64,000 bases of DNA from a bacterium (GTDB taxonomy: Bacteria > JAJRZV01): the NCBI GenBank assembly GCA_024275095.1, contig JAJRZV010000050.1:1603-65602 (forward strand), read 5' to 3'. Of this stretch, positions 16,603-54,425 are shown piece by piece. The notes below the pieces were generated by a model. It saw only the letters and a list, made by a program, of their open reading frames with translations, did no database searches and had not been told where the DNA came from. The translations under genes and the position numbers were made by a program. Every line of letters begins with the position of its first letter. The stretch's first letter is position 1.

Positions 16603-18459
16603 TTATGGCGGCGGCATAAACTGGTCGTCAGCAGGATACAGATTGATTCGCAGTGCATACCTTAGAGCTTCATAGCCATCACTCGTGACGATATAGAACC
16701 GCCAGGTGAAGCTGTCTTCGGGAGACGTTTCGTCGCGTATGCGCACCTGTTGCTGGGCAGGATACACGCAGGCAGCAAGGTGCACGGTTGAATGGTCCAT
16801 TATCAGGTACGTGTTCTCACCAAGGGCGATTAATCCGTTCACAAGGGGTATGCATATATGGTCAAAGTCGAAGTTTCCCAGTGGAAACTGTACGAGATTT
16901 TCTTCGAGAAGGGCGGGTGAATATTCTACATAGCTTAGTGAAAAAGGGAAGGTTACGGACACTTCCCGATCGGTACCCTTGTTAACATTTAGTGTTACTG
17001 AATAAATATCCTGCTGCGTGGTACATCTTGAAACAGCCAGGGCATAATCGCGACTCGTTGTGACCAGTGAATATACCGGGAAAGAGGACGCAATTTCGAA
17101 TTCACTTTCTTCCAGGCAGTATTTCGGCAGGTCGGGTCTGATGTCCTGGTATGTACTTTCTGAAAACATCGTCGATATTTTTTGTGCCAGTAATTTTGCT
17201 GTTTTTTCAGCTTCTGCAGAGTGATAAAGGCTGTAGTTGACTTCCGTATAGGCAGGATTCCAGCCGGTTGAGTCACTGACTTCGGCCTTGAGCTGGTGCC
17301 GCCAGGCATCCCGGAGCATGTTTTTCCATTCCTCTGATACTGCTGCGCCGCTTGCCTCTGCATATTCCAGTGCCTGTTCGGCCTTCATCAGAGCGCGCCG
17401 ACTTTTCCAGTTCGCCACGCGGACAACATTGTCCATTTCGGTTCCGCCGAAAAGTCCTATGCCACCCATCCAGAGAAAAAGATTGTCTGAATACACCGGT
17501 CGCCAGTCTCCGTCAAAGACCAGAGGGAAAGGTCGTGGTTCAACACCAGCATCCAGAACGGTGTTCACATATTCTGAAATAGTTGCGATGGTATACCCTT
17601 CAGCTTCATAGGCCGATAGGCGTTCCTCGAATTCTTTAAAGTTTTCTTCGCGTGCTTTGAAACCGATAATAAAGTAGGGTGGGATGTCCCCTGTAGCCAG
17701 CAGTTCCCCGTCGTCGTAGTAGGCCCATCTCACTGAATAAGTCGTACCGTTAATTTCAAAGTCCAGGTTTTCAGGAGCTATGATGACGTATACGTTTCCT
17801 CGCTGGTAGAGAGGGTGGATGAAGGTTGTATCAGAAGAATAGTGGTACCTGAAAAGTCCGCGTGGAAAAGCAGCGATCCGGTATCCTTTTTCAGCCATGA
17901 AGTCCAGAGTGCCCAGCCCGAATTGGCCTTCCTGGGTGAAAACCACATCGCTGAAGGGCAAACACAACTCGCGTGAAAGGTCCATATTGAGCTTCCATGA
18001 CCATTCCATGTCTTCCCTTGGGAATGCCAGGTAGAGCTGATCGCTGTAGTGAAAGCTCATGAGCTCCACCTGGCCTCTTTCAACAAGAGTTTCCAGCTTT
18101 TTCAACACCTCGGGGTGACGCTCGGCCATTACTTCCAGCATGTAACCCTGAAGTTCAATGTTGGCTTTCCACCGTGGATGTTTCAGGTAAAAGTCAAGCA
18201 CCGGCTCAAAACTCTCGCGCACGATGAGGTCTTCCATGATTTCATTGGACACGGTATCACCGCCTTCACCGGTAAGTCCTCCTGCAATGTACTGGATGTT
18301 GAAGTGAAATAGAGAAAGTACGAAATGTGTACTGTCCGTTTTTTCAGTGTTGGCTCGAATGCCCCATGTTGCACACTCTTTGTTCGAACATCCCTGCACA
18401 GTAGAAAGGATGACAATGAGAAAATATGCCACTGGTATTGATAAGTTCGTTTTTTTCAT
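16603..18459 (-). CDS. exported (probable lipoprotein) glycoside-hydrolase-like protein of the GH38/GH57-type (beta/alpha)7-barrel family
   Basis: Start placed at internal ATG 18459 (MKKTNLSIPVAYFLIVILSTVQGC = signal peptide plus Cys); downstream FHFNIQYIAGG and RGQVELMSFHYSDQLYLAFP resemble GH57/GH38 N-terminal catalytic blocks. Family assignment from memory only. Confidence 0.5.
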   Translation of the reverse strand: MKKTNLSIPVAYFLIVILSTVQGCSNKECATWGIRANTEKTDSTHFVLSLFHFNIQYIAGGLTGEGGDTVSNEIMEDLIVRESFEPVLDFYLKHPRWKANIELQGYMLEVMAERHPEVLKKLETLVERGQVELMSFHYSDQLYLAFPREDMEWSWKLNMDLSRELCLPFSDVVFTQEGQFGLGTLDFMAEKGYRIAAFPRGLFRYHYSSDTTFIHPLYQRGNVYVIIAPENLDFEINGTTYSVRWAYYDDGELLATGDIPPYFIIGFKAREENFKEFEERLSAYEAEGYTIATISEYVNTVLDAGVEPRPFPLVFDGDWRPVYSDNLFLWMGGIGLFGGTEMDNVVRVANWKSRRALMKAEQALEYAEASGAAVSEEWKNMLRDAWRHQLKAEVSDSTGWNPAYTEVNYSLYHSAEAEKTAKLLAQKISTMFSESTYQDIRPDLPKYCLEESEFEIASSFPVYSLVTTSRDYALAVSRCTTQQDIYSVTLNVNKGTDREVSVTFPFSLSYVEYSPALLEENLVQFPLGNFDFDHICIPLVNGLIALGENTYLIMDHSTVHLAACVYPAQQQVRIRDETSPEDSFTWRFYIVTSDGYEALRYALRINLYPADDQFMPPP

Positions 18460-18523
18460 GTTTAAGCATTTTAACAAGAAAGGATGTTTCCATGAAGAAG
18501 TGATGGTGTATAGCTCAGGGTCT

Positions 18524-19714
18524 TTAAAGTCCGTACTCCCTGAGAAATGACTGAATGATGAGAACGGCGGATGCGCTGTGCACGACCCGTTTTCGACGCG
18601 TGCGCCTGGTGTGGCTGAGTAAAAGAGATGCATCCTTGGAAGTTAAAGATTCGTCAAAAGGAAATACTTTTATCTCTTTTCCAAGACGTCCCTGCAGGCG
18701 CTTTATAAATCGTAAATGTAGTGTTTCCTGCGAGGTATCATTAAATTCCCTGTTGTAGGGTACACCCACTACTACTGTGCAGGTGCGCTTTACCTTAGCA
18801 AGAGAAGCAATTTTTGTTAAAGCCTCTTTCCTGCTGTGCACGTCTATCGGGTTGAGAGGATACGGAGGAAGCTCCGGTTTTTCCTGAAGGGCGATGCCGA
18901 TGTGTCGTTCACCGAGATCCACAGCCATCACGGGAAAACGGAAAAAGTATCCCCAGTGAAAGGGAGGATAATCAGTGTGTGAGTGAATAATGCGTTCGCC
19001 TGCAGTGATGATATTGGTACTCAGGTAATGTGCTGTGAAGAATGCAGGAAGAGACGGCAGTCTCAGACGGGGGGTGAGACGGAGTTCTTCAACAAGTTTT
19101 AGAAGATGCTCTTCATCCTTTTGTGCTACGGCTCCTCCGTCACTGATTCCGGCTGAAGCAAGCAGCTCTTTGTACAGCTCTTCTGATATAACCCGCCTCC
19201 ACGACGAAAACGGCATTGAAAGTGTTACCTCAGCAGATGTAAAGGCTTTGAGAAGAGAGATTATGTGTCCGGTAGAAGGAATGTTCGAGGGAGGTGGTTC
19301 AAATACGAACTCCTGCACGGATTCCAGCAAGCTCCTCGCATGTTTCACAAGCTGTTGAAGGTGGGAGACTTTTATGGAGGAAAGAATTTTTATGCTGAGT
19401 GAGATAGGTACCGGATTGAGGATGCTTGCTGCAGAAAGGATTTTTTTGCAAGTTTCCATATCAGTGAGGGGTATGCCAAGTGATACGGAAGATATGTACT
19501 GCTTGATTGCACCAGGGATTTTGAAGCATTCAGTGTGTATTTGCAGAACAGGAAGCAGTCCATTTTTCAGAATGCCTTGTGCTTGCTCGAGAAGCGTATG
19601 CCCGGGAGTCGTGGAGCTTGTTTTCGGAAGTTTTTTGTTTGTAGCCCCCGGGATTACAGGGGCTGTGTGTAATTGATACGTGAAAAAACGTTTCGATGAC
19701 ATCTCAATCGCCAT
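18524..19714 (-). CDS. ruvX: Holliday-junction resolvase-like RuvX/YqgF domain (C-terminal 134 aa) preceded in frame by an uncharacterised ~260-aa N-terminal region
   Basis: C-terminal part MAVDLGERHIGIALQE...VVVGVPYN...HSASAVLIIQSFL matches YqgF/RuvX; the same frame stays open 786 nt upstream with no stop and no SD before the internal ATG at 18928. Confidence 0.6.
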   Translation of the reverse strand: MAIEMSSKRFFTYQLHTAPVIPGATNKKLPKTSSTTPGHTLLEQAQGILKNGLLPVLQIHTECFKIPGAIKQYISSVSLGIPLTDMETCKKILSAASILNPVPISLSIKILSSIKVSHLQQLVKHARSLLESVQEFVFEPPPSNIPSTGHIISLLKAFTSAEVTLSMPFSSWRRVISEELYKELLASAGISDGGAVAQKDEEHLLKLVEELRLTPRLRLPSLPAFFTAHYLSTNIITAGERIIHSHTDYPPFHWGYFFRFPVMAVDLGERHIGIALQEKPELPPYPLNPIDVHSRKEALTKIASLAKVKRTCTVVVGVPYNREFNDTSQETLHLRFIKRLQGRLGKEIKVFPFDESLTSKDASLLLSHTRRTRRKRVVHSASAVLIIQSFLREYGL

Positions 19715-25051: not shown

Positions 25052-25223
25052 ACTCACCCTCGGAATAAGTGCTTTTATTAACTCAAAAAGGATTTTAACA
25101 GAAAGATGCATTCAGGCATAGAGATGATTTGCAGATTTGAAAAGGACGGCCTGGTGATAGCACCAGATTGGATTCGGATTTCGGGATTAAAGAGGCGTGT
25201 GTATGGTAATATTACACTTAACC

Positions 25224-28394
<3,171 letters not shown>

Positions 28395-28408
<14 letters not shown>

Positions 28409-28910
28409 TCAGCATCTGGAAAACAAACTCCGTCGTGTCGAATTGCTCGTTTTGGATGTGGATGGTGTGCTCAGTGACGGCCGGATTTACATCAGTGACG
28501 ACGGTCGTGAAATCAAAGCTTTTGACGCTCGTGATGGTCTTGCTATTGTGGCTTTGAAAAGGCGAGGCGTTGAAGTTGCCGTAATTTCAGGTCGCTACTC
28601 CAGGGCGGTGGAGATTCGCTGTTCTGATCTGGGAGTAGAACTCCTGTTTCAAGATGTCTCGGATAAGCTGGATGTGCTTAAAAAGATTCTCAAGCAATGC
28701 AACCTGTCCCCTGAAAGTGCAGCGGCGATGGGAGATGATATTAACGATATTTCCATGATGAAGTATTGCGGCGTGTGTGCTACCGTGCCGGAAGCTCATC
28801 CTGCCGTGCTGGAAGTGGCAGATTATGTCACTTCGCGCGCTGGCGGTCGGGGAGCAGTGAGGGAATTTTCCGAACTCATCATGAAAGCCAAAGGTATGTG
28901 GAAATATTGA
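28395..28910 (+). CDS. kdsC: KDO 8-phosphate phosphatase (HAD superfamily)
   Basis: ...RRVELLVLDVDGVLSDGRIY...GDDINDI... HAD-IIIA motifs; start uncertain (GTG 28395 or ATG 28341). Confidence 0.75.
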
Positions 28911-29767
28911 ATACAGGCCCCTCTCTTACAAAGCGCATCAGACGCAGTGTTGCGTACAGTCTGATAAGAATGTTTGTATTTTTTTTCAGGCTTCTGCCGC
29001 TCGAATTTGCTTGCAGGCTGGGCCGTTTGGCGGGCGAGGTCGCCTGGATGGTATTTCGTCGTGAAAGAAAGAAGGGCATTGAGAATTGTATCCGCAGTGA
29101 CAAGGCCCCTGATGAGGCCCGGAAGATTGTAAAAGCGGCTTTTGCACGTGTGGGCTGGAAGGTGGTTGAAGCTGTAAACGTGAAAAGGATTCTTACTCTG
29201 CCGTCCTTGAGCATTCAGGCGGAAGGTGAGCATCTGTTGAGAGCACTGGCTTGTTCCGGAGGAGGTATTGCATTTACAGCCCATTACGGCAACTGGGAGC
29301 TCCTTGCTGCCTGGGCCGTGGCCACCGGACTGCCGCTTACTGTTCTCGCACGGCCTCTTTACGACCCCAGGCTTTCACAATGGGTTCGCAAAGAAAGAGA
29401 AAACATCGGCGTGGAAACACTTTACGCAGAGGGTTCAGCGTATTTGCGTAAAGTGCTCGAGGCACTGCGTCGTGGACGAATCGTTGCTGTACTTCCAGAT
29501 GCCAGACCTTACGGAGACAGGGTGTGTGAGGTATCTTTTCTCGGCGGCTCTATGGTGTTGCCTCTCAGTCCTTTCAAGCTCGCCTTGAGAAATCAGAACA
29601 GGCCGGTTGTTGCTTTTATAAGGCAGGATGGGTGGTCTTTCAGATATCATATTTTAGTACGTAAAATAGAAGGAAGCAGCCCTGAGGAACTGGCGCAGAA
29701 TTACGCCTGCCATCTGGAGGAGGTAGTAAAGGAGAAGCCCGAGGATTGGATATGGTGGCTGAGATAA
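28898..29767 (+). CDS. lipid A biosynthesis acyltransferase (LpxL/HtrB family)
   Basis: ORF 28766-29767 trimmed to GTG 28898; ...FFFRLLPLEFACRLGRLAGEVAWMVFRRERKKGIENCIRSD... resembles the HtrB/LpxL N-terminus; sits between kdsC and lptCAB. Confidence 0.7.
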   Translation: MEILNTGPSLTKRIRRSVAYSLIRMFVFFFRLLPLEFACRLGRLAGEVAWMVFRRERKKGIENCIRSDKAPDEARKIVKAAFARVGWKVVEAVNVKRILTLPSLSIQAEGEHLLRALACSGGGIAFTAHYGNWELLAAWAVATGLPLTVLARPLYDPRLSQWVRKERENIGVETLYAEGSAYLRKVLEALRRGRIVAVLPDARPYGDRVCEVSFLGGSMVLPLSPFKLALRNQNRPVVAFIRQDGWSFRYHILVRKIEGSSPEELAQNYACHLEEVVKEKPEDWIWWLR

Positions 29768-30252
29768 TTTTATGTGCTCTGATAGGTGGTGGCCAGCCCT
29801 CTTTTAGTGCACTTTCAACAATTAAAAATGCCAAGAGCACCAATGGTTCCATTACACTCATACGTCATGAAAAGGCTGTTGTGAGGCTTCGCTTCCAGGA
29901 GGCTACCTTCAACAGTGAACAAAATTCTGTGCATCTTCGACGGGTTACAGGTGAGGCACAGCTGGAAAAAATGAAGAACAGAGTTCTATCGTTTGTTTTG
30001 CCCGAGATTCTTATTAAGCCTCAGGATAAAGCAGCCACTGTTTTGGGGAATTTAGAGATTTATCTCGAGCAATATTCAGCACGATGTACATCGCCGGTTG
30101 TTAAACACGCGAAGGAAAAGTGGGTAATCAATGGCGCATGTGTTCTGTCTGCCCCTGATGGCTCACGTGGCAGCTGTGCCCACATGGTGTATGACAGGGG
30201 AAAGGCGACTGTTTCGTGTGAAGGAGGGGTGGATATTAATTATGTCCCGTAA
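29746..30252 (+). CDS. LptC-like protein (putative)
   Basis: 168 aa with short N-terminal hydrophobic segment, directly upstream of and overlapping lptA; assigned by position only. Confidence 0.35.
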   Translation: MDMVAEIILCALIGGGQPSFSALSTIKNAKSTNGSITLIRHEKAVVRLRFQEATFNSEQNSVHLRRVTGEAQLEKMKNRVLSFVLPEILIKPQDKAATVLGNLEIYLEQYSARCTSPVVKHAKEKWVINGACVLSAPDGSRGSCAHMVYDRGKATVSCEGGVDINYVP

Positions 30253-30745
30253 GCAACCGGTCAAAATTGTATTGTTGTTGCTTCTGGTGATGTTTGCTTT
30301 TCAAAGTCGTGCACTCGCGGCTGTTGAAAAAGATAAAGATAAAGATAAGGTGGCCTTACCTTTTGAAAAAGCACCTGTTGAGATAAAGTCAAAGAAGGTT
30401 ACATATCATTTGAAAGAAAAGAAAGTGCTGTTTGAACAGGAAGTGATTGTTCGTCAAAGAGACCTTGTCATATATGCCGACAAGGCGTTTGCGTTTCTGG
30501 ATTCCAATAACGAAATTGAAAAGATCGTGCTCACTGGCCTCGTAAAGGTTGTCAAAGGAGACGTGGTGCTGGTGTCCACAAAGACTGTATATCTGAGGAA
30601 GGAGGGTCTCATTATCATTACCGGTGAGCCTCGAGCATGGAAAGGAAAAGATTTTCTGGAAGGAGAACGTATTACCTATGACCTGAACACAGGAGAGCTC
30701 AGGTTGGAAAATGCGAGTATCACCATTAACGAGGTAAAGCCCTGA
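30242..30745 (+). CDS. lptA: LPS export periplasmic protein LptA (OstA-like)
   Basis: Internal ATG 30242: MSRKQPVKIVLLLLLVMFAFQSRALA signal peptide, then an OstA-like beta-jellyroll sequence. Confidence 0.7.
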   Translation: MSRKQPVKIVLLLLLVMFAFQSRALAAVEKDKDKDKVALPFEKAPVEIKSKKVTYHLKEKKVLFEQEVIVRQRDLVIYADKAFAFLDSNNEIEKIVLTGLVKVVKGDVVLVSTKTVYLRKEGLIIITGEPRAWKGKDFLEGERITYDLNTGELRLENASITINEVKP

Positions 30746-31461
30746 TGCTTGAAGGTATTGACCTTAAAAAATCATTCGGTCGAAAGGTCGTTGTTCAGGA
30801 CGTAAACGTTCGAATTCCCCGTGGAATGGTGGTGGGTCTTCTCGGGCCTAACGGTGCAGGCAAAACGACCACTTTTCGGATGATTGCCGGTTTTTTACAA
30901 CCAGATACAGGGACTGTGTTGCTGGATGGTAAGGACATTACAACACGTGAGGTTCATGAGAGAGCCCTGCTCGGGATTACATATCTTTCCCAGGAGCCTT
31001 CTGTATTTAGAGGGTTAAGTGTCGAGGACAACATCATAGCCGTTCTTGAATTTCACGGGTACAGTCGTAAAGACGCAGTGAAAAAAGCGTGGGAACTTCT
31101 CGAACAGTTCGGTCTCCGCGGTAAGGAGAAACAGAAAGCATGGAGCCTCTCGGGCGGAGAGAGGCGACGACTGGAGGTGGCAAGGGCAATTGCGATAGAA
31201 CCCAAATATATTTTGATGGACGAGCCTTTCACGGGAATAGACCCAATCATGGTGGCAGAGCTGAAAACTATCATCCAGCAGCTTGCTCAGATGAACATAG
31301 GAGTGTTAATTTCTGACCACAACGTTCGGGATACTTTGAGTATTTGCAACAAAGCGTATATAATAGCTAATGGTATGATTATTGCTAAAGGGACATGCGA
31401 CGAGCTTGTTAACCATCCGGACGTGCGCAGGTATTACCTGGGTGAGGACTTTGAGATGTGA
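30745..31461 (+). CDS. lptB: LPS export ABC transporter ATP-binding protein LptB
   Basis: 238 aa, Walker A GPNGAGKTT, signature LSGGERRRLEVARA, Walker B ILMDEP. Confidence 0.9.
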   Translation: MLEGIDLKKSFGRKVVVQDVNVRIPRGMVVGLLGPNGAGKTTTFRMIAGFLQPDTGTVLLDGKDITTREVHERALLGITYLSQEPSVFRGLSVEDNIIAVLEFHGYSRKDAVKKAWELLEQFGLRGKEKQKAWSLSGGERRRLEVARAIAIEPKYILMDEPFTGIDPIMVAELKTIIQQLAQMNIGVLISDHNVRDTLSICNKAYIIANGMIIAKGTCDELVNHPDVRRYYLGEDFEM

Positions 31462-32894
31462 CCATGGACCAGAGACTTTCACTTAAGCAGTCTTTAAAAC
31501 TTCAACAAAAACTTATACTTACGCCCCAACTGCGCCTTGCGCTCGAGATCCTACAGATGAATCGCTTGGAACTCGAAGAGTCCATTTTTCAGGAACTGGA
31601 AGTTAATCCCTTTCTGGAAGCGGAAACGCCCGCTCCTGAGGAAGGGTCCCAGCATGAAGAAAACCCTCCGGTAGACCACGTTGCAGAACTTGAGCACCTT
31701 TCAAATTTGCTTGAAGAGGGCTTCAGGTCCTACCATGCCGAACAAACTGCGTTTCATTATGGCGGTGCCGAAGAAGACGAGGAAGAACGCGTGGACCCAT
31801 TGAGTCTGGCTACCCACACGGAAACGCTGAGCGAACACTTGGCTTGGCAGCTTCAGATGAACGATTTTTCATCGTATGAAGTAAAAATCGGTGCCGAGAT
31901 TATCGGCAACCTGGACTCTGACGGTTATCTGAGGGTAGAGCCTGAGGAGATTGCAAACGGACTGGGTGTTCCTCTCGAGGATGTTGAAAATGTGAGGCGG
32001 CGGATTCAGGAATTTGATCCTCCCGGTGTGGCCTCACGCAATCTTTCAGAGTCTCTCGCTGTTCAGCTTAAGGTTTCGAAGCTGGGAGACGAAATAGAAA
32101 TGAGAATGGTTACAGAACTTCTTCAGTATACTTTGAACCGGAATACCGAACAGCTGAAAAAGGTCCTGAAGGTTGACGATGACCGCTTGCGGAGGGCATA
32201 CGAAATTATTTCTCACCTTGATCCCAAGCCGGGCCGTAATTTTTCGACCACTCCGGTAGAAGCTGTGATTCCAGATTTAAAGGTGGTTCAGAAAGGAGAC
32301 GATTTCGATGTGATCCTCATGGACGAACGCATACCGCGATTGAGATTGTCTTCACACTACCGTAAATACTTGCAGGCTGCAAAAGATAACCCTGATATTG
32401 CAAAATTTCTTCTCGAGCGTTATCAGCGGGCCCAGGGGATTATTAAAGGAATTTTTCAGAGAAATGACACGCTGCTCAAGGTGGGTCGCAGCATCGTGAA
32501 ATTTCAAAAGGAATTCATGCTTCAGGGGCCTGAACACATGACACCCCTGACCCTGAAAGATGTTGCAGCTGATGTGGACATGCACGAGTCTACCATCAGT
32601 CGCATCACCACGAATAAGTGGATTGATACACCCTGGGGCATATTTCCTCTCAAGCACTTTTTTTCCAGCAAGGTCCGGGGTGCTGGGGGTGAAACACATT
32701 CTTCCATTGCAGTGAAGGAGAAAATCAAAAAACTGATTAAATATGAAGACCCGGCACGCCCCCTCAGTGACGATGAAATTGCACGTCGGTTGAAAAGCGA
32801 GGGTATCAACATCGCGCGAAGAACCGTGGCCAAATATCGTGATGCGCTGGGTATACCTTCATCATCACAGCGCAGGCGCTTAAAATCCGGGTAG
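31458..32894 (+). CDS. rpoN: RNA polymerase sigma-54 factor
   Basis: 478 aa; C-terminal RpoN box ARRTVAKYRDALGIPSS and an acidic N-terminal region. Confidence 0.9.
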   Translation: MTMDQRLSLKQSLKLQQKLILTPQLRLALEILQMNRLELEESIFQELEVNPFLEAETPAPEEGSQHEENPPVDHVAELEHLSNLLEEGFRSYHAEQTAFHYGGAEEDEEERVDPLSLATHTETLSEHLAWQLQMNDFSSYEVKIGAEIIGNLDSDGYLRVEPEEIANGLGVPLEDVENVRRRIQEFDPPGVASRNLSESLAVQLKVSKLGDEIEMRMVTELLQYTLNRNTEQLKKVLKVDDDRLRRAYEIISHLDPKPGRNFSTTPVEAVIPDLKVVQKGDDFDVILMDERIPRLRLSSHYRKYLQAAKDNPDIAKFLLERYQRAQGIIKGIFQRNDTLLKVGRSIVKFQKEFMLQGPEHMTPLTLKDVAADVDMHESTISRITTNKWIDTPWGIFPLKHFFSSKVRGAGGETHSSIAVKEKIKKLIKYEDPARPLSDDEIARRLKSEGINIARRTVAKYRDALGIPSSSQRRRLKSG

Positions 32895-39088: not shown

Positions 39089-39388
39089 ATGAGTGAGAAA
39101 AAACTCAATTGCTGGGAATTCATGAAGTGTGGACGTGAGCCAGGAGGTTCTAAGGTTCACGAGCTGGGTGTTTGTCCTGCAGCTACTGCTGAGAAGGCGG
39201 ACGGTCTCAACGGAGGTAAAAACGGTGGACGTATTTGCTGGGCCATAGCAGGCACTATTTGCGGCGGGAAAATTACAGGTACATTTGCACAAAAGAAAGA
39301 GACCTGCCTCAAGTGCGAGTTTTACAAGCGTGTGCGCAAGGAAGAGGGTATTTATTTTCAGGTGCTCATGCCTGGTCAGACAGCATAA
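39089..39388 (+). CDS. small cysteine-rich protein with duplicated CW...CG motif (two-CW-like)
   Basis: 99 aa, strong SD AAGGAGG; MSEKKLNCWEFMKCGREPGG...GVCPAA...GGRICWAIAGTICGGK...CLKCEFYKRV; 7 Cys; isolated between AT-rich intergenic DNA and a convergent gene. Confidence 0.6.
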   Translation: MSEKKLNCWEFMKCGREPGGSKVHELGVCPAATAEKADGLNGGKNGGRICWAIAGTICGGKITGTFAQKKETCLKCEFYKRVRKEEGIYFQVLMPGQTA

Positions 39389-46588: not shown

Positions 46589-46658
46589 AAAAAAATTCCC
46601 CATGGCGTGCGCTTGTGTCTCATGGTATATTTAATGCAACATTTTTCAGGAGGCTGGA

Positions 46659-47507
46659 ATGGGTATCCTTTCCTTTATTTGGTGGGTTATTGTTCTCATT
46701 ATCAAGATAGATATACTGATGGTGGTGCTCACATGTCTGGTGGGTGTTTATGAGCTCAGGAACGACTCTGAACTTTCGGAAAAGGTGGGATGGCTGGATG
46801 TGGCATTTGGTCTTCTCAGCGAGATTTTCGCGTCACTTTTCAATCTTTTTGTGTTCCCCTTAGGTTATTTCCGCATTGAAAAATGGTTCAGGGCGTATGT
46901 CGACGAAGGCGTGGTTGACGCGCCCGTGCTTCTTCTGCACCCGTATTTTGGAAATCCGACCAATGTGTGGTTCCTCCTGTTTCGATTCCGCAAGTCCGGG
47001 TTCAACAATGTTTTTACCATTTCTTTACGGCCCCGCCTGGCCGGTCTTGACCAGTTTCTCCAGCAGGTTGATGATAAGGTTACGCAGATTCTTGAAAGGA
47101 CAGGTGCTTCTAAAATAGCCCTTGTTGGACACAGCATGGGAGGCCTGCTGGCACGGATGTACGCGCTGGAAAACCCTGACAGGGTTTTTGCAGTTGTAAC
47201 TGTTGGTGCTCCCCATCGCGGCTCTAAACTTGCCGTTTTTGGGCTCGGGAGATGTGCCAGGGACATGGAACCGGGAAGTTCAATTATTCAGGAAATCGAA
47301 GGTAAGTATCCGGATGTTCCGTTTCTCTCCGTGTATTCACCAGTGGATAACCTTGCATTACCGCAGCGCACAGCGATTGTGCCCGAGGATGGACTCCGGG
47401 TGAATTATGAGGCACCGTGCGTGGGACATCTTGCCATGATGTTTACACCCTCTGTGGCTGATGCCATAGTGGGATTCGTGAGAAGTAAAGCGCAGCCCGG
47501 TGAGTGA
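46659..47507 (+). CDS. membrane-anchored alpha/beta-hydrolase (lipase-like, GHSMGG)
   Basis: 282 aa, two N-terminal TM helices, nucleophile elbow GHSMGG; first gene of a 4-gene overlapping operon. Confidence 0.6.
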   Translation: MGILSFIWWVIVLIIKIDILMVVLTCLVGVYELRNDSELSEKVGWLDVAFGLLSEIFASLFNLFVFPLGYFRIEKWFRAYVDEGVVDAPVLLLHPYFGNPTNVWFLLFRFRKSGFNNVFTISLRPRLAGLDQFLQQVDDKVTQILERTGASKIALVGHSMGGLLARMYALENPDRVFAVVTVGAPHRGSKLAVFGLGRCARDMEPGSSIIQEIEGKYPDVPFLSVYSPVDNLALPQRTAIVPEDGLRVNYEAPCVGHLAMMFTPSVADAIVGFVRSKAQPGE

Positions 47508-48384
47508 TTTTCCAAGCCTGATTTTTATCACTGGTAAGGGCGGCGTAGGCAAGACCACCGTTGCCCTGTCCGTGTGTCTCGCCCTCGCCCGGAAGGGCAG
47601 GAAAGTCATGTACATTGAATGGGGACGCAACAATGCGTCTTCAGCTTTCTGGAACAGGCGTGTTCGACCTTACGAGCGTGTACGGGTACAGGAAAATATA
47701 GAAGCATTTCGCATTACTCCTGATAAGGCAATGGAAGAGTATGTAAAAATTCGGTTGCGCAGCCCGTTACTTTATTATCCCTTTCTCCGCAGCAAAGTCT
47801 GGAAAGGTTTTTCACAGACAATGCCGGCGCTTAAAGAGTCCGTAATTCTCGGTAAACTCTGGTTTATGATTTACGGTGAGGGACAATTCAGTGATGTGGA
47901 GGTATTTGTGTTTGACGGTCCATCTACCGGAGTGGCTACCGGTATGATAGATGTGCCTTATCGCATGAAAGAGGCTTTTGTAGTGGGACCAATGCGCGCG
48001 GAGGCTCAGAAGCTTATTGACCTGCTGGAGGCTCCCGGCACGGTTTTCTGGGTGGTTACGTATGGTGAAGAACTGGCAGTGGAAGAATGCCTGGAATTTG
48101 TTGAATATATTCGACCAAAGCAGTACAGAATCATATTCAACAGATATTACACCATGGATGTTAACACACATGAACTGGGAAAGCTTGAGGGGTCTCTTCG
48201 AGAACGCGCCAGGGGGGTCATTGATTATTATTCATTTCGCAAAAAACTTATTGATCATCATCTGAAGCGGCTTCAGGATTTCAATCCCCTCATAGTGCCG
48301 AATGTGTTTCATGCATTTGACATGAAAGAAATTGTTCAATGGACGTCACAGACGTTTGAGGAGGAGAGAGTATGGACAGGTTAA
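47500..48384 (+). CDS. ArsA/Get3-family ATPase, single-domain (half-size)
   Basis: 294 aa, deviant Walker A ITGKGGVGKTTVA, switch-II-like FDGPSTGVATGM; no arsB/arsD/arsR nearby. Confidence 0.75.
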   Translation: MSDFPSLIFITGKGGVGKTTVALSVCLALARKGRKVMYIEWGRNNASSAFWNRRVRPYERVRVQENIEAFRITPDKAMEEYVKIRLRSPLLYYPFLRSKVWKGFSQTMPALKESVILGKLWFMIYGEGQFSDVEVFVFDGPSTGVATGMIDVPYRMKEAFVVGPMRAEAQKLIDLLEAPGTVFWVVTYGEELAVEECLEFVEYIRPKQYRIIFNRYYTMDVNTHELGKLEGSLRERARGVIDYYSFRKKLIDHHLKRLQDFNPLIVPNVFHAFDMKEIVQWTSQTFEEERVWTG

Positions 48385-49205
48385 GAATAGGCACTGCTGG
48401 AGTACCTCACTCAGCAAAGAAACGGGATTCGATCTCGGGAATAAAGCGCATTCACGAACTGGGCTTGGACGCCATGGAACTCGAGTTTGTTCGTGGAGTG
48501 AAAATGAAGGCCTCTGTCGCGGAAGAAGTACGCCGGATCGCGGATGAATACGACGTAAGGCTGACCGTTCACGCTCCTTATTATGTAAACCTGGCATCAG
48601 AGGAAAAGAACAAACGTGAAGCGAGCATCAAGCGCGTGGTGGACTCTGCCGAGGTTGGACAGCTCTGTGGAGCTGTATCTGTAACATTTCACGCTGGTTA
48701 CTACGGGAAAAATCCGCAGGCGGCAGGTGAGCTTATAAGGGAGGGGATCCTGCAAGTTCTTGAGCAACTATCAGGATGTTACATCACCATCAGCCCGGAG
48801 ACCACAGGGAAACCTTCTCAATACGGGACACTTGAAGAATTATTGAATATAAGTCGTGAACTGCGCGTTGGTCTGTGTGTTGATTTTTCCCATCTTTATG
48901 CACGGAGCCTGGGAGCCATTAACGGGAAGGATGCTTTTCGCAAGGTCATAAAACAGGTAAAAAAGGTTCTTGGCCCACGAGTAGTTAAAAATATGCATAT
49001 CCACGTTTCCGGAATGGAGTTTTCAAGCAAGGGAGAGGTCAGACACCTCAATTTTCGCGAGTCAAGTTTTGATTACGTGGGACTTGTTGACGCACTGGTA
49101 GAAGAGAAGGTGACAGGGATTGTTATCATTGAAAGTCCAAATCTGGAAGAAGACGCCCTGCTTTTTAAAGACCTTTATACAAAATTTTCAGGTGGCCGTG
49201 TCTGA
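48372..49205 (+). CDS. xylose-isomerase-like TIM-barrel protein (AP endonuclease family 2 / sugar-phosphate isomerase-like)
   Basis: 277 aa, IGTAGVP...ELGLDAMELEF... resembles the Nfo/TIM-barrel family; overlaps the ArsA-like gene by 13 nt. Confidence 0.55.
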   Translation: MDRLRIGTAGVPHSAKKRDSISGIKRIHELGLDAMELEFVRGVKMKASVAEEVRRIADEYDVRLTVHAPYYVNLASEEKNKREASIKRVVDSAEVGQLCGAVSVTFHAGYYGKNPQAAGELIREGILQVLEQLSGCYITISPETTGKPSQYGTLEELLNISRELRVGLCVDFSHLYARSLGAINGKDAFRKVIKQVKKVLGPRVVKNMHIHVSGMEFSSKGEVRHLNFRESSFDYVGLVDALVEEKVTGIVIIESPNLEEDALLFKDLYTKFSGGRV

Positions 49206-50544
49206 AAAGCCTTCACACAGCCTGAAAGAAGGGAATGTTTTTTTTACCGTATCAGCGGTTATTTTTCTTCTGCTGATTGTCCTTGATATTTCGCGGATTC
49301 CCGATATGCGGGCCAACGCCCATCGCGCCCTTGCCGATGTTGCGGTTTTAAGTATTTGCTTCGTGTATTTGTACGTCCGCCGTCCGCTTCCCGGATGGGC
49401 TGTGTTGTTGGTGGTACTGGTGGTCAAATTCATTTCATATACCGGGAGGCACCAGGTTTTGTCCGGACCACCTGTCCCTTATATGATGACTATGGAAGCG
49501 GCAACTCTCGTGCTTTTCTTCATTCTCAATAGAATTGACGATTTGATCATATTCGGTCTGCACCCTATACCTGTTCTTTTATCCGGCAGTACAGGCAATA
49601 TTTATGTTGTTTCACTCATGCTTCTTCGCTGCGGCTGGGCACTTTCTGCGAAACGCCAGCGTATAGCCGGCGTGCTTTCACATTTTTTTTACGGTGCAGG
49701 TGCCATAATGTCGCTGCCTGCATTTTTGATTACGCCGCTTGTTGTAAAGGGAAAAAGAAGAATTTTGTTAACACTGGGTATTACTGTTGTCGGAAGCGGC
49801 TTGATATTTTTTTCAGGCCATACCCCTCCGTGGGTGCTTCATTTAACCGGGTATTTTAAAGGAGAAACATGCGCATCCCTTGCGGGTGAAATATTTGGGT
49901 CGATGGGCTTCCGTTACTATCCTGCTATCGGGGCTCTTGCAGTGCTTGCAGCGCTTGTGGGTAACTCGTCACGCTCACGCGAACAGGATGTGCTGCCTCT
50001 TTACCTGATGTTTGCTCCGTTTATGGGCGGTGGACTTGAGGGTGTTAGCTTGTACGGTTTTTTTAGCCAGGAAAAAAGCCTTGTTTATTTCAGTTTCTCT
50101 TTCCTCTTGCTGCTGGGAGCAGGTGAGTGGCCGCAGGGGCTGTGTCACCCTCCGGTTCCGTATCTCATCATGATGTTTTTGCCACTGCTGGTTGTATATG
50201 TAATATCGCGGTTTCCCGGGTGTTTCCCGGGTCCGCGCGGGAAACAGTACGACGTGACATTTCAACTGGAAGGAATGTGCATTGAAAAAGCAGCGAAAAA
50301 GTACCTGAAAAGAATGATGGAGGAGGGCCTGGAAGGGAAAAGTATACCTGAGAGCGAGTATGAAGTGCTCCGGGAATTTGTGGAAACAGCAGATTTCAGA
50401 ACTCTCAGAAGCAGTTACCCGGTGCTTGATGGGAGCAAATCGGTGAAAGTGAAACTTTTTCAGAAGAAGCAACGTTTATATATAAAGGTGGAGGAGACAG
50501 ACGGTGGGGTTCAGGAGATTCCTGTTTTGAAAAAAAAGACTTGA
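49198..50544 (+). CDS. large polytopic membrane protein with C-terminal soluble domain, unknown function
   Basis: ORF 49120-50544; start placed at in-frame GTG 49198 overlapping the previous stop; many hydrophobic helices and a ~100-aa charged C-terminal domain. Confidence 0.45.
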   Translation: MSEKPSHSLKEGNVFFTVSAVIFLLLIVLDISRIPDMRANAHRALADVAVLSICFVYLYVRRPLPGWAVLLVVLVVKFISYTGRHQVLSGPPVPYMMTMEAATLVLFFILNRIDDLIIFGLHPIPVLLSGSTGNIYVVSLMLLRCGWALSAKRQRIAGVLSHFFYGAGAIMSLPAFLITPLVVKGKRRILLTLGITVVGSGLIFFSGHTPPWVLHLTGYFKGETCASLAGEIFGSMGFRYYPAIGALAVLAALVGNSSRSREQDVLPLYLMFAPFMGGGLEGVSLYGFFSQEKSLVYFSFSFLLLLGAGEWPQGLCHPPVPYLIMMFLPLLVVYVISRFPGCFPGPRGKQYDVTFQLEGMCIEKAAKKYLKRMMEEGLEGKSIPESEYEVLREFVETADFRTLRSSYPVLDGSKSVKVKLFQKKQRLYIKVEETDGGVQEIPVLKKKT

Positions 50545-50616: not shown

Positions 50617-51720
50617 ATGAGAAAAGTAAGTATTTTCATGGCGGTTGCCATGGTGCTGGTAATGGGTTGCGAAAAACTGGCAAAGGTAAAACAGGAAAAT
50701 GCCACACCCGTGGCAACTGTTCAGGGCATTGTAACAGATGAATTCCAGTCTCCCATTGCAAATGCCAATGTGAAAATTTTGATAGAGGGAGTGTGGAGAG
50801 AGGGGTATGTGACCGACGAGCAGGGTGTGTTTGTTATTCCTGATATTCCAGCCGGATCTGTCTACACTGTGGAAATTGATGCTTCGGGTTATTTCACTGT
50901 ACAGTTCTCCGTGAACGTGCCCCTTCCTTCCAATTTCTTCCCCACAGGCAATCAGGTCTTGGACCTGGGTAACATCATTCTTTTCCATGACAATGGAGGG
51001 TTGAAAGGGTGTTTTACCATCCAGTTGCCCAATGCGACCAATCCGTGGCCTGCAACAAATGCAACCGTTGTACTTACGGTTAATCAGCTTGGTTCTAACA
51101 GCGTGGTCATCACCGGCATTCAGGCAGATGCAAACGGGTGTTTTGACATTGCTCCTACATCCGGAAGGTTACCGGCATCCAGTTTTGGGAATGTAACGGT
51201 CAATATTCTTGCAGTGAAGCAACAGGAGTACGTTGTTGGAACAACCGGTAGTGTAACAGTGCCGTATTCCTGGACGCTCAACAACCTCCCTCTGACTCCC
51301 GATCTGACAACCTACCTGGGATACAATACCATGACGCAAAACTGTGCTTACGCAGGAAATCCGATTATTGTTAACCTCACCCAGAATTTTGACCGCTGCA
51401 ACCCCATTGATGGATCGTGCCTCAAGAATTCCTCCGCGAACAATTCCGGAACCGGAATTACCGATAACAAGGTGATAAGGCTGAACGTAAAGTTTGACCA
51501 GGTGATGGATATGAGCACTTCTCCTAACTTCAGTTGCGATGGATGCGCAGGAGTTGTCACGTGGGGCTGGTACTGGTCGAACGATTTTGAAGGATACTTT
51601 CTCATTGAATTCGTCGCAGGCTCTGATGACTCGGGCCAGGCATATAAGATTACAGCCAATGGCAGCGCTGCTAACTACTGTGGCAACCTCTTGCAGACAT
51701 ACAACGGCGTTTTTAAATGA
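50617..51720 (+). CDS. lipoprotein with carboxypeptidase-regulatory-like domain, unknown function
   Basis: 367 aa, MRKVSIFMAVAMVLVMGC lipobox; ...VKILIEGVWREGYVTDEQGVFVIPDIPAGSVYTVEIDASGYF... transthyretin-like domain. Confidence 0.5.
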   Translation: MRKVSIFMAVAMVLVMGCEKLAKVKQENATPVATVQGIVTDEFQSPIANANVKILIEGVWREGYVTDEQGVFVIPDIPAGSVYTVEIDASGYFTVQFSVNVPLPSNFFPTGNQVLDLGNIILFHDNGGLKGCFTIQLPNATNPWPATNATVVLTVNQLGSNSVVITGIQADANGCFDIAPTSGRLPASSFGNVTVNILAVKQQEYVVGTTGSVTVPYSWTLNNLPLTPDLTTYLGYNTMTQNCAYAGNPIIVNLTQNFDRCNPIDGSCLKNSSANNSGTGITDNKVIRLNVKFDQVMDMSTSPNFSCDGCAGVVTWGWYWSNDFEGYFLIEFVAGSDDSGQAYKITANGSAANYCGNLLQTYNGVFK

Positions 51721-51738: not shown

Positions 51739-52863
51739 GTGAAAGCGCCTAAGCTGATTCCTGTAGTGATTGTTTTTGCGCTGGTGGGAGGATTGCCTCC
51801 CACCAGTTTTTCTGCATGGGCAAAAACGAAGAAGCCCAGATCTAAGGTCAGATATGTTGTGGTGGATGGAGAGAGGTGGAGTGTTGCTGTTAAAAACAGG
51901 GTTTTTAAGGTAAGGGTTGAGGGGCCTGCCCGTGTAGAGGTGCGTGTGAGAGCCCTTGCATCCCGTAGGAAGATGAAGAACAGGCCGTTTAACGTGAAGC
52001 TTGCGACACCTGAAAAGCGGATGAATTTAAACGTACCCGTTTTGGAAGTACCCGCGGGTATTCGTTATGCAGGTTTGAAGCGTTCTGTTCCAACACGCGC
52101 TATTTCCCTTATAAAGGACGTTGATATACCCGCCGGAATGCATGTTATCTCGCTGGTCCCGGAACGGACATGTCTTGTACAGGTAAAGGTCAGAAAGGTA
52201 CCTGCTCGCAAGAGAGAAGCACCGTCAGTGACTGCAGAAAAGAAAGGTTCTTTTCTCAACGTCAAAGCAGGCGCAGGCCCGTTATATTTTTCCCAAACAG
52301 GCTTCACATCTCCGGGCTTTAACCTGTGGGGCCAGGTGTATCTCCGTTCATTTTCTCCCCGGTTACAACTGGGAGGAACCATTGAGTACATGTTTTATCA
52401 GGCCGCGTACTTTTACCAGGACCCCGCCACAGTATCTTTTTATCCTCGCACTGCAGTGGTCAACGAGAGTCGAATAACGTTTTCTGCCACGGGTGATGTG
52501 TCACTTGTACGGTCTTCCACGTTTAAATTTTCACTTGGTGGAGGATATACAGGAGATTATTTCCTGAACAATTTTTCGAGAATTAATTTTCAAGGCATTG
52601 TTGCCCGGGGGAGGGTATTTCTGAATGTGAGTCCCACATGGATATTTAACACGGGCGCATCTGTGGCATTTCGTCTTGGAGGTACATCCTACACGCCTGC
52701 ATTTGAAGGTTTACCGCGCCTGCGTGTACGTGTTCCTCTTGTACTGAGCATTCCTCTTCGTTGGAACAATGTGAACATGCGGGTGGGTTATCGTTTTGAG
52801 TATCTGGATTTTGAATACAGTAGTCGGTTCTACAATGTGTTGATGCTGGCCCTGGCCATTTAG
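51739..52863 (+). CDS. exported (possibly outer-membrane) protein, unknown function
   Basis: 374 aa, signal peptide MKAPKLIPVVIVFALVGG; C-terminal half rich in alternating aromatic/Gly beta-strand-like segments. Confidence 0.4.
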   Translation: MKAPKLIPVVIVFALVGGLPPTSFSAWAKTKKPRSKVRYVVVDGERWSVAVKNRVFKVRVEGPARVEVRVRALASRRKMKNRPFNVKLATPEKRMNLNVPVLEVPAGIRYAGLKRSVPTRAISLIKDVDIPAGMHVISLVPERTCLVQVKVRKVPARKREAPSVTAEKKGSFLNVKAGAGPLYFSQTGFTSPGFNLWGQVYLRSFSPRLQLGGTIEYMFYQAAYFYQDPATVSFYPRTAVVNESRITFSATGDVSLVRSSTFKFSLGGGYTGDYFLNNFSRINFQGIVARGRVFLNVSPTWIFNTGASVAFRLGGTSYTPAFEGLPRLRVRVPLVLSIPLRWNNVNMRVGYRFEYLDFEYSSRFYNVLMLALAI

Positions 52864-52931: not shown

Positions 52932-54425
52932 TTAGAGAATTGCAAGTACCCCTTCTGCAGCGTGATACCCTGCAGCCATAGCGGTGAGCATGGGGTTGAC
53001 TCCCGTGGGATAGGGAAAAATGCTGGTATCAGCAACAAATATTCTTTCACTGTAACGGAGTGACAGATCAGGTCTCACCGGATAACGCTCGGGGTTCTCT
53101 CCCGCACAGCATGTGCCCTGTGGATGGGCGGAGTATATGAATCCCTTCCCTTTTCTGAAAGAGATCGTATGTTCGTTTATTTCTTTTTCTCGTCTGTAAC
53201 GAATACCACCAGATGCGAGGATTACCACTTCCTTAGCACCTGAACGCAGCAATCCCCGAGCACATATAGCCACACCTCTGACAATACCTGTTTCGTCATC
53301 CGGAGCGAGATTGTAGAAAGGAAAGGGCCGATCGGCCCAGTGCGTGATAAAGCCCGAATGTGAATCGTATCGCTGAACAATAAACATGCTCATGTGACGG
53401 TACCTTTTCATGAGCTGCAGGTGTTCGGCGGGAGTGCCGGGTAATGCCACAGAGGTTGTTACCGGTAGCAGAAACATGCTTTCTATAACACATCCTGTTT
53501 CTTCAAAGAAGCTGTCGCAGTAGCCCTGCATTGGTATTCCGTCAAATCCATCCACAGTTTCTTCATGAATTCCAAATACAATGGCTGTGGGGTGTGTATA
53601 AAATCCTTTTCCTATACGCCCGTGTGGGTCTGGATGATCTGACATAAAAAGCAGCAAAGGGGTAAAGAGAGCTCCACATGAGATAACAACGGTACGGGCG
53701 GAGATGTGAAAGTAGGATATAGGAGAACCGTACTGGTCAATGAGTTGGCCTTTCACGTGGACGCGGCCATTCCTTTCTTTTACTTCTGTAGCTTTTGCAC
53801 CACAAAAGACTGTCAGGCCATTTTTCAACCCCTCAGGTATAAAGGTCATATCTGTTGACCTTTTCTTAAATGTAGGGCATCCGGTAATGCATGTGCCGCA
53901 ACCGTCACATCCAGGAGCATTTCTGCGCATGAGCTCGGGGGTGCCACCTGCTGCTTTCATGGCTTCCATGAAAATTTCACCGTTGCGATTGAGCATGTTC
54001 TCCGGTACTGGTCCTACTTTAAGTAGCTGTTCAATATCATCGTAATATTCGTCGAGTTTTTTCTCGGCCCAGCCGAGTCCTGCTTTGATCCATTTTTTTC
54101 GATGCTTTTGCGGCATCCTGAGAGCGCACGCCTGGTTGATGCGGGATGCTCCTCCTAAGGTCCGGCCCATAAGTACGGGTATGGGGGGATCGCCCATTGC
54201 TGCTGTAAGTCCGCCATCCCGGTAAAAGTGTATAAGAGCAAATGCTTCATCTCGTCCGTGGTATGTATATGAATGGTGCCAGCCTTCCTCCAGGAGGTAC
54301 ACTTTTTTACCAGCCATGGCCACCCGATAGGCACACGCTGCTCCTCCTGGTCCTGACCCAATTATTACTGTATCAGGTGTGGTATCAATAAAGGGGTGTT
54401 TGATAGTAAATGAGTCAAGAATCAC
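52932..54425 (-). CDS. GMC-family FAD-dependent oxidoreductase
   Basis: 497 aa, VIIGSGPGGAACAYRVAMAGKKVYLLEEG dinucleotide fold, GMC-like C-terminus. Confidence 0.8.
   Translation of the reverse strand: MILDSFTIKHPFIDTTPDTVIIGSGPGGAACAYRVAMAGKKVYLLEEGWHHSYTYHGRDEAFALIHFYRDGGLTAAMGDPPIPVLMGRTLGGASRINQACALRMPQKHRKKWIKAGLGWAEKKLDEYYDDIEQLLKVGPVPENMLNRNGEIFMEAMKAAGGTPELMRRNAPGCDGCGTCITGCPTFKKRSTDMTFIPEGLKNGLTVFCGAKATEVKERNGRVHVKGQLIDQYGSPISYFHISARTVVISCGALFTPLLLFMSDHPDPHGRIGKGFYTHPTAIVFGIHEETVDGFDGIPMQGYCDSFFEETGCVIESMFLLPVTTSVALPGTPAEHLQLMKRYRHMSMFIVQRYDSHSGFITHWADRPFPFYNLAPDDETGIVRGVAICARGLLRSGAKEVVILASGGIRYRREKEINEHTISFRKGKGFIYSAHPQGTCCAGENPERYPVRPDLSLRYSERIFVADTSIFPYPTGVNPMLTAMAAGYHAAEGVLAIL

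Follow-up and report, generated by a model that had tools for sequence, protein, structure and literature searches.

The four-gene locus

This study concerns four genes, g1 to g4, located at positions 46659-50544 of a 64-kb stretch of bacterial DNA (referred to below as the window). They encode a serine hydrolase with a probable membrane anchor, a single-domain ATPase related to ArsA and Get3, a TIM-barrel protein and a polytopic membrane protein. With a probability of roughly one half, we read the string as a composite operon, in which the functional core would be formed by the hydrolase g1 and the ATPase g2, an orphan of the BagA type. The four open reading frames (ORFs) are confirmed, all on the same (+) strand. 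These genes, with their lengths in amino acids (aa), and a possible promoter element about 28 nucleotides (nt) upstream are listed here.

46622..46631 (+): possible extended -10 element TGgTATATT, about 28 nt 5' of the g1 start (a match to the consensus only)
46659-47507 (+): g1, 282 aa, predicted membrane-anchored serine hydrolase, similar to family-I bacterial lipases
47500-48384 (+): g2, 294 aa, single-domain P-loop ATPase of predicted ArsA/Get3 fold, BagA type, with no BagB partner
48372-49205 (+): g3, 277 aa, endonuclease-IV-like TIM barrel, predicted metallo-phosphodiesterase
49198-50544 (+): g4, 448 aa, predicted polytopic membrane part (residues 1-346) fused to a soluble domain of the AF_2379 type (residues ~353-433)

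The g1 gene begins with an ATG located 7 nt after an AGGAGG sequence, g2 begins with a GTG, and g3 begins with an ATG that is preceded by a GAGGAGGAG box. For g4, the GTG start at 49198 agrees with the database protein P0124, and in-frame alternative starts are found at 49192 and 49120. The four ORFs are taken to be real genes, as all four proteins have homologues elsewhere. Successive genes overlap by 8 nt (g1/g2), 13 nt (g2/g3) and 8 nt (g3/g4), just as described in an earlier account of this DNA that was made from its letters alone (the sequence-only reading). The domains named in that account, a GHSMGG hydrolase, a GKGGVGKT ATPase, a xylose-isomerase-like TIM barrel and a polytopic membrane protein that ends in a soluble domain, are recovered as well by searches with the Pfam and NCBIfam libraries and by hydropathy analysis.

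Three related genomes are available, those of the window, of L001 and of L086 (with L002 and L087). In both the window and L086, a gap of about 70 nt with a -10-like box precedes g1. The box of the window is the element at 46622..46631, which is absent from the promoter-scan output. In L086 a TATAAT box is located at the matching place of a 69-nt gap, despite the different upstream gene. The promoter, terminator, Rfam and tRNA scans gave nothing that delimits a transcription unit here. The g1-g4 string is probably co-transcribed.

The ATPase, the hydrolase and their recurrent adjacency

The P-loop of g2 is GKGGVGKT, a deviant Walker A motif. The protein matches the Pfam family ArsA_ATPase (PF02374) at 4.6e-14, and its top NCBIfam match is BagA (NF053622, 2.3e-25), with 89.7 bits against a cut-off of 400 for this equivalog model, which was made for mycobacterial orthologues. 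TIGR00345 (GET3_arsA_TRC40), whose cut-off is 135, gives 48.4 bits and matches residues 9-157 only. With the ArsA model TIGR04291, the score is 33.4 bits against a cut-off of 650. The top match by sequence in the PDB is 6bs3_A (Rv3679), at 7.6e-17 over residues 7-273. The AlphaFold model of g2, built from 26 sequences, has a pLDDT of 89.6, and the same PDB entry is its top match in Foldseek (E 2.9e-16, TM 0.75). The next matches by fold are archaeal TRC40/Get3 and yeast Get3, with E values of 1e-13 to 1e-15 and TM values of 0.62-0.70 (TMq).

On the evidence of sequence and predicted structure, g2 is thus a divergent member of the BagA/BagB family of 'bacterial Get3-like' proteins. The ATPase is not of an unknown kind, a point on which the sequence-only reading is not supported, since this family is already described. 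BagA and BagB are Rv3679 and Rv3680 of Mycobacterium tuberculosis, with PDB entries 6bs3-6bs5 (Hu et al. 2019 and Whitaker et al. 2020, as cited in PMC10597346); BagB is a longer paralogue that pairs with BagA in a heterodimer. In PMC10597346, which cites Whitaker et al. 2020, toxicity of glycerol and of nitric oxide is tied to mutation of bagAB. Mycobacterial bagAB mutants also show altered citrate tolerance and altered drug survival or tolerance (PMC10597346, PMC12216072). Crystal structures and mutant phenotypes of BagAB are thus on record, and the family is not known to have a biochemical mechanism, client or partner. Bacterial Get3 homologues in general are uncharacterised (PMC6593721), and none of the several bacterial groups named in that review is described with the g1-g4 context.

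The only cysteines of g2 are Cys26 and Cys197, and its nearest relatives, P0002 and P0003, have other residues at both positions. No CxxC motif is present in the protein. Between switch II and the strand of residues 181-187, the model has only two helices, 143-159 and 164-177, and it leaves no room for the lid of the TRC40 insert. The sequence-only reading had pointed to client-binding features as in Get3 and to metalloid-site cysteines as in ArsA as possible signs of function; in g2, the predicted structure does not have the lid, and neither cysteine is conserved.

These features also bear on a role in arsenite or antimonite efflux, with g2 as the pump ATPase ArsA. The argument for it is the name of the Pfam family, ArsA_ATPase. 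On the other side, g2 is of half size, its score with the ArsA model is a small fraction of the cut-off, and its two cysteines are unconserved. Moreover, no gene for ArsB/Acr3, ArsC, ArsD or ArsR was found among the ~55 annotated ORFs of the window, nor in the L001 and L086 loci. Arsenic resistance is refuted for the window, as the sequence-only reading had also held, and we give the pump next to no chance.

Near relatives of g2 are rare. Among 5.8 billion proteins there are only two, with 54% and 53% identity, and the next is at 31%. The neighbourhoods of more remote homologues, 24-35% identical to g2, were inspected at 83 distant loci. Simple ORF calls gave many spurious antisense ORFs at loci with high G+C content, and our conclusions on these loci rest on homology searches. 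BagB partners were also counted by homology, as the P-loop of BagB is G(T/A/P)GGVGKT. A longer second ArsA-like gene, of the BagB type, is located directly 3' of the ATPase gene at 68 of the 83 loci, and at one more it follows after a gap of ~500 nt (69/83). Nine of the loci are true singletons and five are truncated. No BagB-like gene was found near g2 in the window, L001 or L086, and the 64-kb window has no second ArsA-type P-loop or ArsA-like ORF besides g2.

The nucleophile elbow of g1 is GHSMGG, in agreement with the G-x-S-x-G pattern. The protein matches Pfam Abhydrolase_1 at 1.3e-12, and also PGAP1, Palm_thioest, Lipase_3 and LCAT. The triad Ser159-Asp230-His257 is invariant in six homologues. 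Hydropathy analysis places hydrophobic segments at residues 1-33 and 48-68, and E55 and P67, in the second of these, are also invariant among the homologues. A charged N-terminus of the signal-peptide kind is not seen in g1. The nearest solved structures are those of the Burkholderia and Pseudomonas lipases of families I.1 and I.2 (1e-11 to 1e-12), and the motif GHSxGG...T(V/I)G(A/T)PHRGS is common to g1 and the family I lipases. Judged by these features, g1 is a membrane-anchored serine hydrolase that resembles the family I lipases and has kept its catalytic triad.

A g1-type hydrolase is found directly 5' of the BagA-like gene at four of the 83 distant loci, L044, L052, L073 and L085. The hydrolase of L085 has 32.5% identity to g1 over 283 aa, with an E value of 1e-52. 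In a rough neighbour-joining tree of 86 ATPases, the four loci are located on four separate branches. As the hydrolase precedes BagA-like genes on four branches besides that of the window, the functional pair with the best support in the string is g1-g2. No homologue of g3 or g4 was found at any of the 83 loci.

The neighbourhood was also sampled from the side of the hydrolase, at 80 metagenome loci taken from at most 600 pattern matches. This sample is biased toward generic hydrolases, and most of its matches span the catalytic core only. Transmembrane-anchored g1-like hydrolases in L094, L095 and L099 adjoin genes of the patatin, phasin and fatty-acyl-CoA-reductase types, which suggests a lipid theme, and in L095 a GMC oxidoreductase adjoins the hydrolase. 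As a GMC oxidoreductase gene is also located downstream of g4 in the window and in L086, the theme may be one of neutral lipids or fatty alcohols. The hydrolase family is broader than its link with the ATPase, which recurs but is seen in a minority of cases.

In the ATPase tree, the loci nearest to the clade of the window are those of the Bdellovibrio type. They have the order BagA-BagB-TPR-EI24-GshA, where the last three are a TPR lipoprotein, an EI24-family membrane protein and a GshA-family protein. The conserved set downstream of BagAB was seen in L083 and L084, and also in L035, L069, L074, L080 and L082. This neighbourhood of the same ATPase family is a different one and is apparently undescribed.

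The TIM barrel, the membrane protein and gene order in related genomes

The g3 protein matches Pfam AP_endonuc_2 at 6.4e-36. With the nfo model TIGR00587, it has an E value of 6.9e-18 and a score of 64.9 bits, against a cut-off of 129.65, and with the variants of PRK01060 it scores 31-56 bits, against cut-offs of 244-376. An alignment of 24 members of the family shows eight invariant residues, H67, H107, E143, D171, H174, H209, H225 and E254. The invariant residues align with the motifs of endonuclease IV and account for eight of the nine ligand positions of its trinuclear metal site. The ninth position, which we take to be Asp229 in E. coli Nfo numbering, is shifted, with an invariant Glu three residues before the His and not an Asp two residues before it. 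The profile of the g3 family matches the structures of endonuclease IV (6e-14) and MJ1311, a protein whose function is not known (1.9e-13), about equally.

The family of g3 has more than 3540 homologues, for which several annotation sources give the name 'TIM barrel protein' or 'deoxyribonuclease IV'. Homologues with ~50% identity are found in Sulfolobales, Archaeoglobales, Thermofilum, WOR-3, Planctomycetota and Hydrothermota. Outside the clade of the window, the neighbours of g3-family genes include endonuclease V (L088, WOR-3) and Nre (L089, an archaeon), and at both of these loci neither the ATPase nor the hydrolase is near the g3-family gene. We read g3 as generic because its family is huge and its contexts elsewhere are unrelated. 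It is probably a housekeeping phosphodiesterase, a predicted apurinic/apyrimidinic (AP) endonuclease, that is merely co-transcribed here. Action on a substrate other than DNA is kept as an alternative beside the AP-endonuclease reading.

The g4 protein has at least six hydrophobic segments by hydropathy analysis, followed by a charged tail of ~100 aa. It has no family in the Pfam and NCBIfam library searches made here. For the membrane part, 1.84 billion representative proteins were searched exhaustively with HMMER, and the only homologues are P0125 and P0126. They are encoded within this cluster in L001 and in L086, and neither has the C-terminal domain. From this distribution, g4 is a lineage-specific membrane protein, as far as sequence can tell. 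The structure model is poor (pLDDT 47.5, from three sequences), and Foldseek gave no match to it in the PDB at E <= 0.001. A divergent EI24-type protein, as found 3' of the Bdellovibrio-type BagAB, was considered for g4 and rejected, with an hhalign probability of 0.7%.

The C-terminal domain of g4 (residues ~353-433) resembles standalone proteins of ~90 aa with the motif L.G.CIETAAK...EFL.T.DF..LR..P.L.G. One of these standalone relatives carries the Pfam domain PF27306 ('AF_2379'), which is also a precomputed match for g4. The fusion of such a tail to the membrane protein is seen in the genome of the window only, and not in L001 or L086. Members of the tail family noted in this work are window positions 50257-50544 (residues ~353-448), P0127-P0139 and L170:1329-1601.

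The G+C content is 47-49% in the window, 38-39% in L086, L002 and L087, and 35% in L001, and protein identities within the clade are 53-66%. L001 has a partial g1, then g2, g3 and g4, followed by unrelated genes. The L086, L002 and L087 loci have g1 through two further genes, g5 and g6, and an opposite-strand GMC oxidoreductase gene after these. The gene 5' of g1 is rsmI in the window and encodes an FG-GAP protein in L086. The genes that follow g4 in the window are these.

50617..51720 (+): g5, lipoprotein-like, signal peptide with LVMGC, CarboxypepD_reg (Pfam, 3.4e-12)
51739..52863 (+): g6, secreted type, 374 aa, N-terminal signal-like segment, no Pfam match
52932-54425 (-): GMC oxidoreductase, conserved at the same place in L086

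The g5 protein is 39% identical, and g6 30-31% identical, to the product of the syntenic gene in L086, and both genes are absent from L001. The L001 gene after g4 was considered as a diverged g5 or g6, and this was rejected by BLASTP.

This gene order is an argument for a true integrated envelope system of four (or six) genes, in which g2 would have exchanged BagB for g4 as its membrane receptor or partner. Such a system would combine g2 and g4 with the hydrolase and the TIM-barrel phosphodiesterase and act on membrane lipids or in membrane-protein insertion, and g5 and g6 might extend it to the outer membrane. The order of g1-g4 and their tight junctions are kept in three genomes of widely different G+C content, and the breakpoints bracket exactly these four genes. 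The membrane part of g4 is found nowhere else among the representatives searched, BagB is lost where g3 and g4 are present, and g5 and g6 are co-conserved in L086. Moreover, other BagAB loci have genes for membrane proteins just 3' (EI24, or a 152-aa transmembrane protein). The EI24 neighbour of these loci is, however, unrelated to g4. The synteny with L086 continues through the opposite-strand GMC oxidoreductase, as shared ancestry alone would predict, and three genomes do not suffice as proof of a machine with four parts. In addition, the family of g3 is thousands strong, at ~50% identity, in archaea and bacteria that have neither g2 nor g4, with neighbours of the DNA-repair type, and g3 and g4 are both missing from the distant ATPase loci.

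The overlapping junctions are of little help in this respect. There are 13 further pairs with same-strand overlaps of 1-8 nt in the window, including the functionally unrelated rpe/rsmI, and such junctions are the norm in this genome. An overlap by itself is therefore no sign of a functional unit, which also speaks against a four-part system. Overall, we regard an integrated system as unlikely. The sequence-only reading, which had proposed a dedicated four-part system for the delivery of membrane proteins or lipids, is correct in that the four genes stay together in the three related genomes; at the distant loci only its hydrolase-ATPase part recurs (4/83), and the family of g3 is generic.

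A stronger form of the integrated system has g2 lose BagB and gain g4 as its receptor, with a cytoplasm-facing lipase and a g3 that acts on a non-DNA phosphodiester. Together they would make a self-contained, ATP-driven system of lipid remodelling or membrane-protein insertion. We hold this to be very unlikely. If true, the system would be the first with a bacterial Get3-type ATPase and an identifiable membrane partner and client.

At the other extreme, four unrelated genes could be adjacent by chance in one compact operon, their shared order reflecting common descent only. Core genes dominate the window, and the string follows the unrelated fmt-rsmB-rpe-rsmI, whose genes have overlaps of similar size just 5' of g1 (4 nt for rsmB/rpe and 8 nt for rpe/rsmI, pairs with unrelated functions). 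The synteny with L086 also reaches beyond the four genes. No PADLOC system was matched: the PADLOC search gave only weak matches of g2, at the level of the P-loop (1.8e-5 and weaker), and none for g1, g3, g4, g5 or g6. These matches are not meaningful, and an anti-phage defence system was dropped from consideration. The hydrolase-side loci, none of which has the ATPase among the matches listed, are also as expected for a fortuitous string. On the other hand, the adjacency of the hydrolase with a BagA-like gene recurs in four scattered lineages, which is hard to ascribe to descent or chance. Furthermore, g1 retains its gap and -10-like box in both the window and L086, although different genes precede it in the two. 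A purely fortuitous string thus seems improbable.

Several observations weigh against the composite operon with its g1-g2 core. The hydrolase link is a minority arrangement, seen at 4 of the ~79 distant loci with enough upstream sequence, and an ArsA-like ATPase was found at none of the 80 loci sampled from the hydrolase side (0/80), among the matches listed. The g1-g4 block is kept in all three genomes of the clade, with breakpoints exactly at both ends, 5' of g1 (window versus L086) and 3' of g4 (L001 versus the window and L086); given this conservation, g3 and g4 could belong to the system. The g3 protein is under the nfo cut-off and matches MJ1311 as well as it matches endonuclease IV. The composite operon also leans on conditional steps, namely a homodimer of g2, a clamp mechanism, a physical or functional link between g1 and g2, and a role of g3 in DNA repair. 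The gene structure, the family assignments, the conserved catalytic residues, the fold and the neighbourhood statistics are the observations from which it is built.

The window is a piece of core chromosome, with a ribosomal-protein operon and genes for riboflavin and pyrimidine biosynthesis. The genes fmt-rsmB-rpe-rsmI are located directly 5' of g1, and carbohydrate and redox genes are located 3' of the string. A lipopolysaccharide (LPS)/envelope block at 25197-32894 contains kdsB, pyrG, kdsA, a kdsC-like HAD gene, a lipid A acyltransferase gene, lptA, lptB and rpoN; the organism is therefore a diderm with LPS.

Some other features of the window are recorded here. A cysteine-rich ORF of 99 aa at 39089-39388 (+), which begins MSEKKLNCWEFMKCGREPGG, has no Pfam match, and a gene for a pyridoxal-phosphate (PLP)-dependent enzyme adjoins it on the opposite strand. 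A 676-aa ORF at 16603-18633 (-) has no Pfam family. It is overlapped by 110 nt by a 396-aa ORF at 18524-19714 (-), which has a RuvX domain only at residues 262-392. Because the domain comes late in this ORF and because of the overlap, its true start is probably much later. Ribosomal-protein operons often have leader motifs; the tRNA, tmRNA and Rfam searches gave nothing above threshold in the 64 kb, despite the large ribosomal-protein operon.

Possible mechanism and comparison with known systems

In the composite operon that we favor, analogy with Get3, ArsA and BagAB suggests that g2 may work as a dimer that clamps and releases under the control of nucleotide. With BagB absent, the two subunits would be copies of g2. 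The helical subdomain would move between open and closed states around a hydrophobic partner, on the cytoplasmic side of the inner membrane. This partner could be g1 itself, through its conserved N-terminal hydrophobic hairpin, or a lipid substrate of g1. Either would fit the neutral-lipid neighbours of g1-like hydrolases and the glycerol-toxicity phenotype of bagAB, as reported in PMC10597346. The g3 protein would most likely be a housekeeping phosphodiesterase of the endonuclease-IV type (an AP endonuclease) that only this lineage has drawn into the transcription unit, and g4 may be the membrane partner of g2.

All parts of the string except the membrane domain of g4 have recognisable folds or relatives, and the ATPase family is already described. 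Relative to the literature that was searched, three aspects seem to be new: the absence of BagB beside a BagA-type ATPase, the repeated occurrence of this ATPase type next to a lipase-like hydrolase with a membrane anchor, and the addition of g3 and g4 in this lineage. The locus is a modest clue, a lead on an enigmatic ATPase family and not a demonstrated new system. The adjacency with the hydrolase, which crosses phyla, gives a testable lead, in that the BagA family may have a lipid hydrolase as its target or its partner at the membrane, and this link could relate to the glycerol phenotype of bagAB. A lineage with BagA but no BagB is also a minimal system for asking whether the ATPase works as a homodimer. 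A bacterial Get3 homologue would also gain its first known receptor-like component if g4 is the membrane partner.

ArsA shares with g2 the Pfam family PF02374 and the P-loop. It has two homologous halves, with a total of ~580 aa, and metalloid-binding cysteines, whereas g2 has 294 aa and a single P-loop.

Get3/TRC40, the ATPase that targets tail-anchored proteins in eukaryotes and archaea, resembles g2 in the fold, in the GKGGVGKT motif, and in having helical elements where the client-binding subdomain sits. It differs in the CxxC motif for zinc-mediated dimerisation and in the lid of the TRC40 insert, neither of which is present in g2. We know of no Get1/2-type receptor, and the window has no recognisable Get1/2-like protein.

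Endonuclease IV (Nfo) is the AP endonuclease with which g3 is compared. Its motifs HAPY..NL, FHxG, PETxGK..G, DxxH and ESP are all present in g3, although g3 is below the curated cut-offs for nfo.

The LipA-Lif operons of Pseudomonas and Burkholderia encode a lipase together with a dedicated foldase. They are like g1-g2 in that a lipase-type gene is followed directly by the gene for a putative chaperone-type protein. There are three differences. The family I.1/I.2 lipases are secreted, whereas g1 would be anchored by its N-terminal hydrophobic segments. The downstream gene encodes the periplasmic foldase Lif, whereas that of g1 encodes a cytoplasmic P-loop ATPase. Finally, the likeness of g1 to the family I lipases is confined to the nucleophile core, residues ~135-207 of g1.

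BagA of M. tuberculosis (Rv3679) is nearest to g2, both by sequence and by fold. Both have the ArsA/Get3 fold in a single domain, and in both the helical subdomain is reduced. They also share departures from Get3 and ArsA, with 'IEWGRN' versus 'VEVEGRQ' at the site of the STDPAH motif, and a switch II that has no His after 'TG'. Like g2, BagA and BagB have no link to arsenic. The identity between BagA and g2 is only 22% in a structure-based alignment. The largest difference is in the neighbouring genes. The gene for BagB adjoins that of BagA, whereas g2 has instead a lipase-like hydrolase on its 5' side and, on its 3' side, genes for an endonuclease-IV-like protein and for a membrane protein specific to this lineage.

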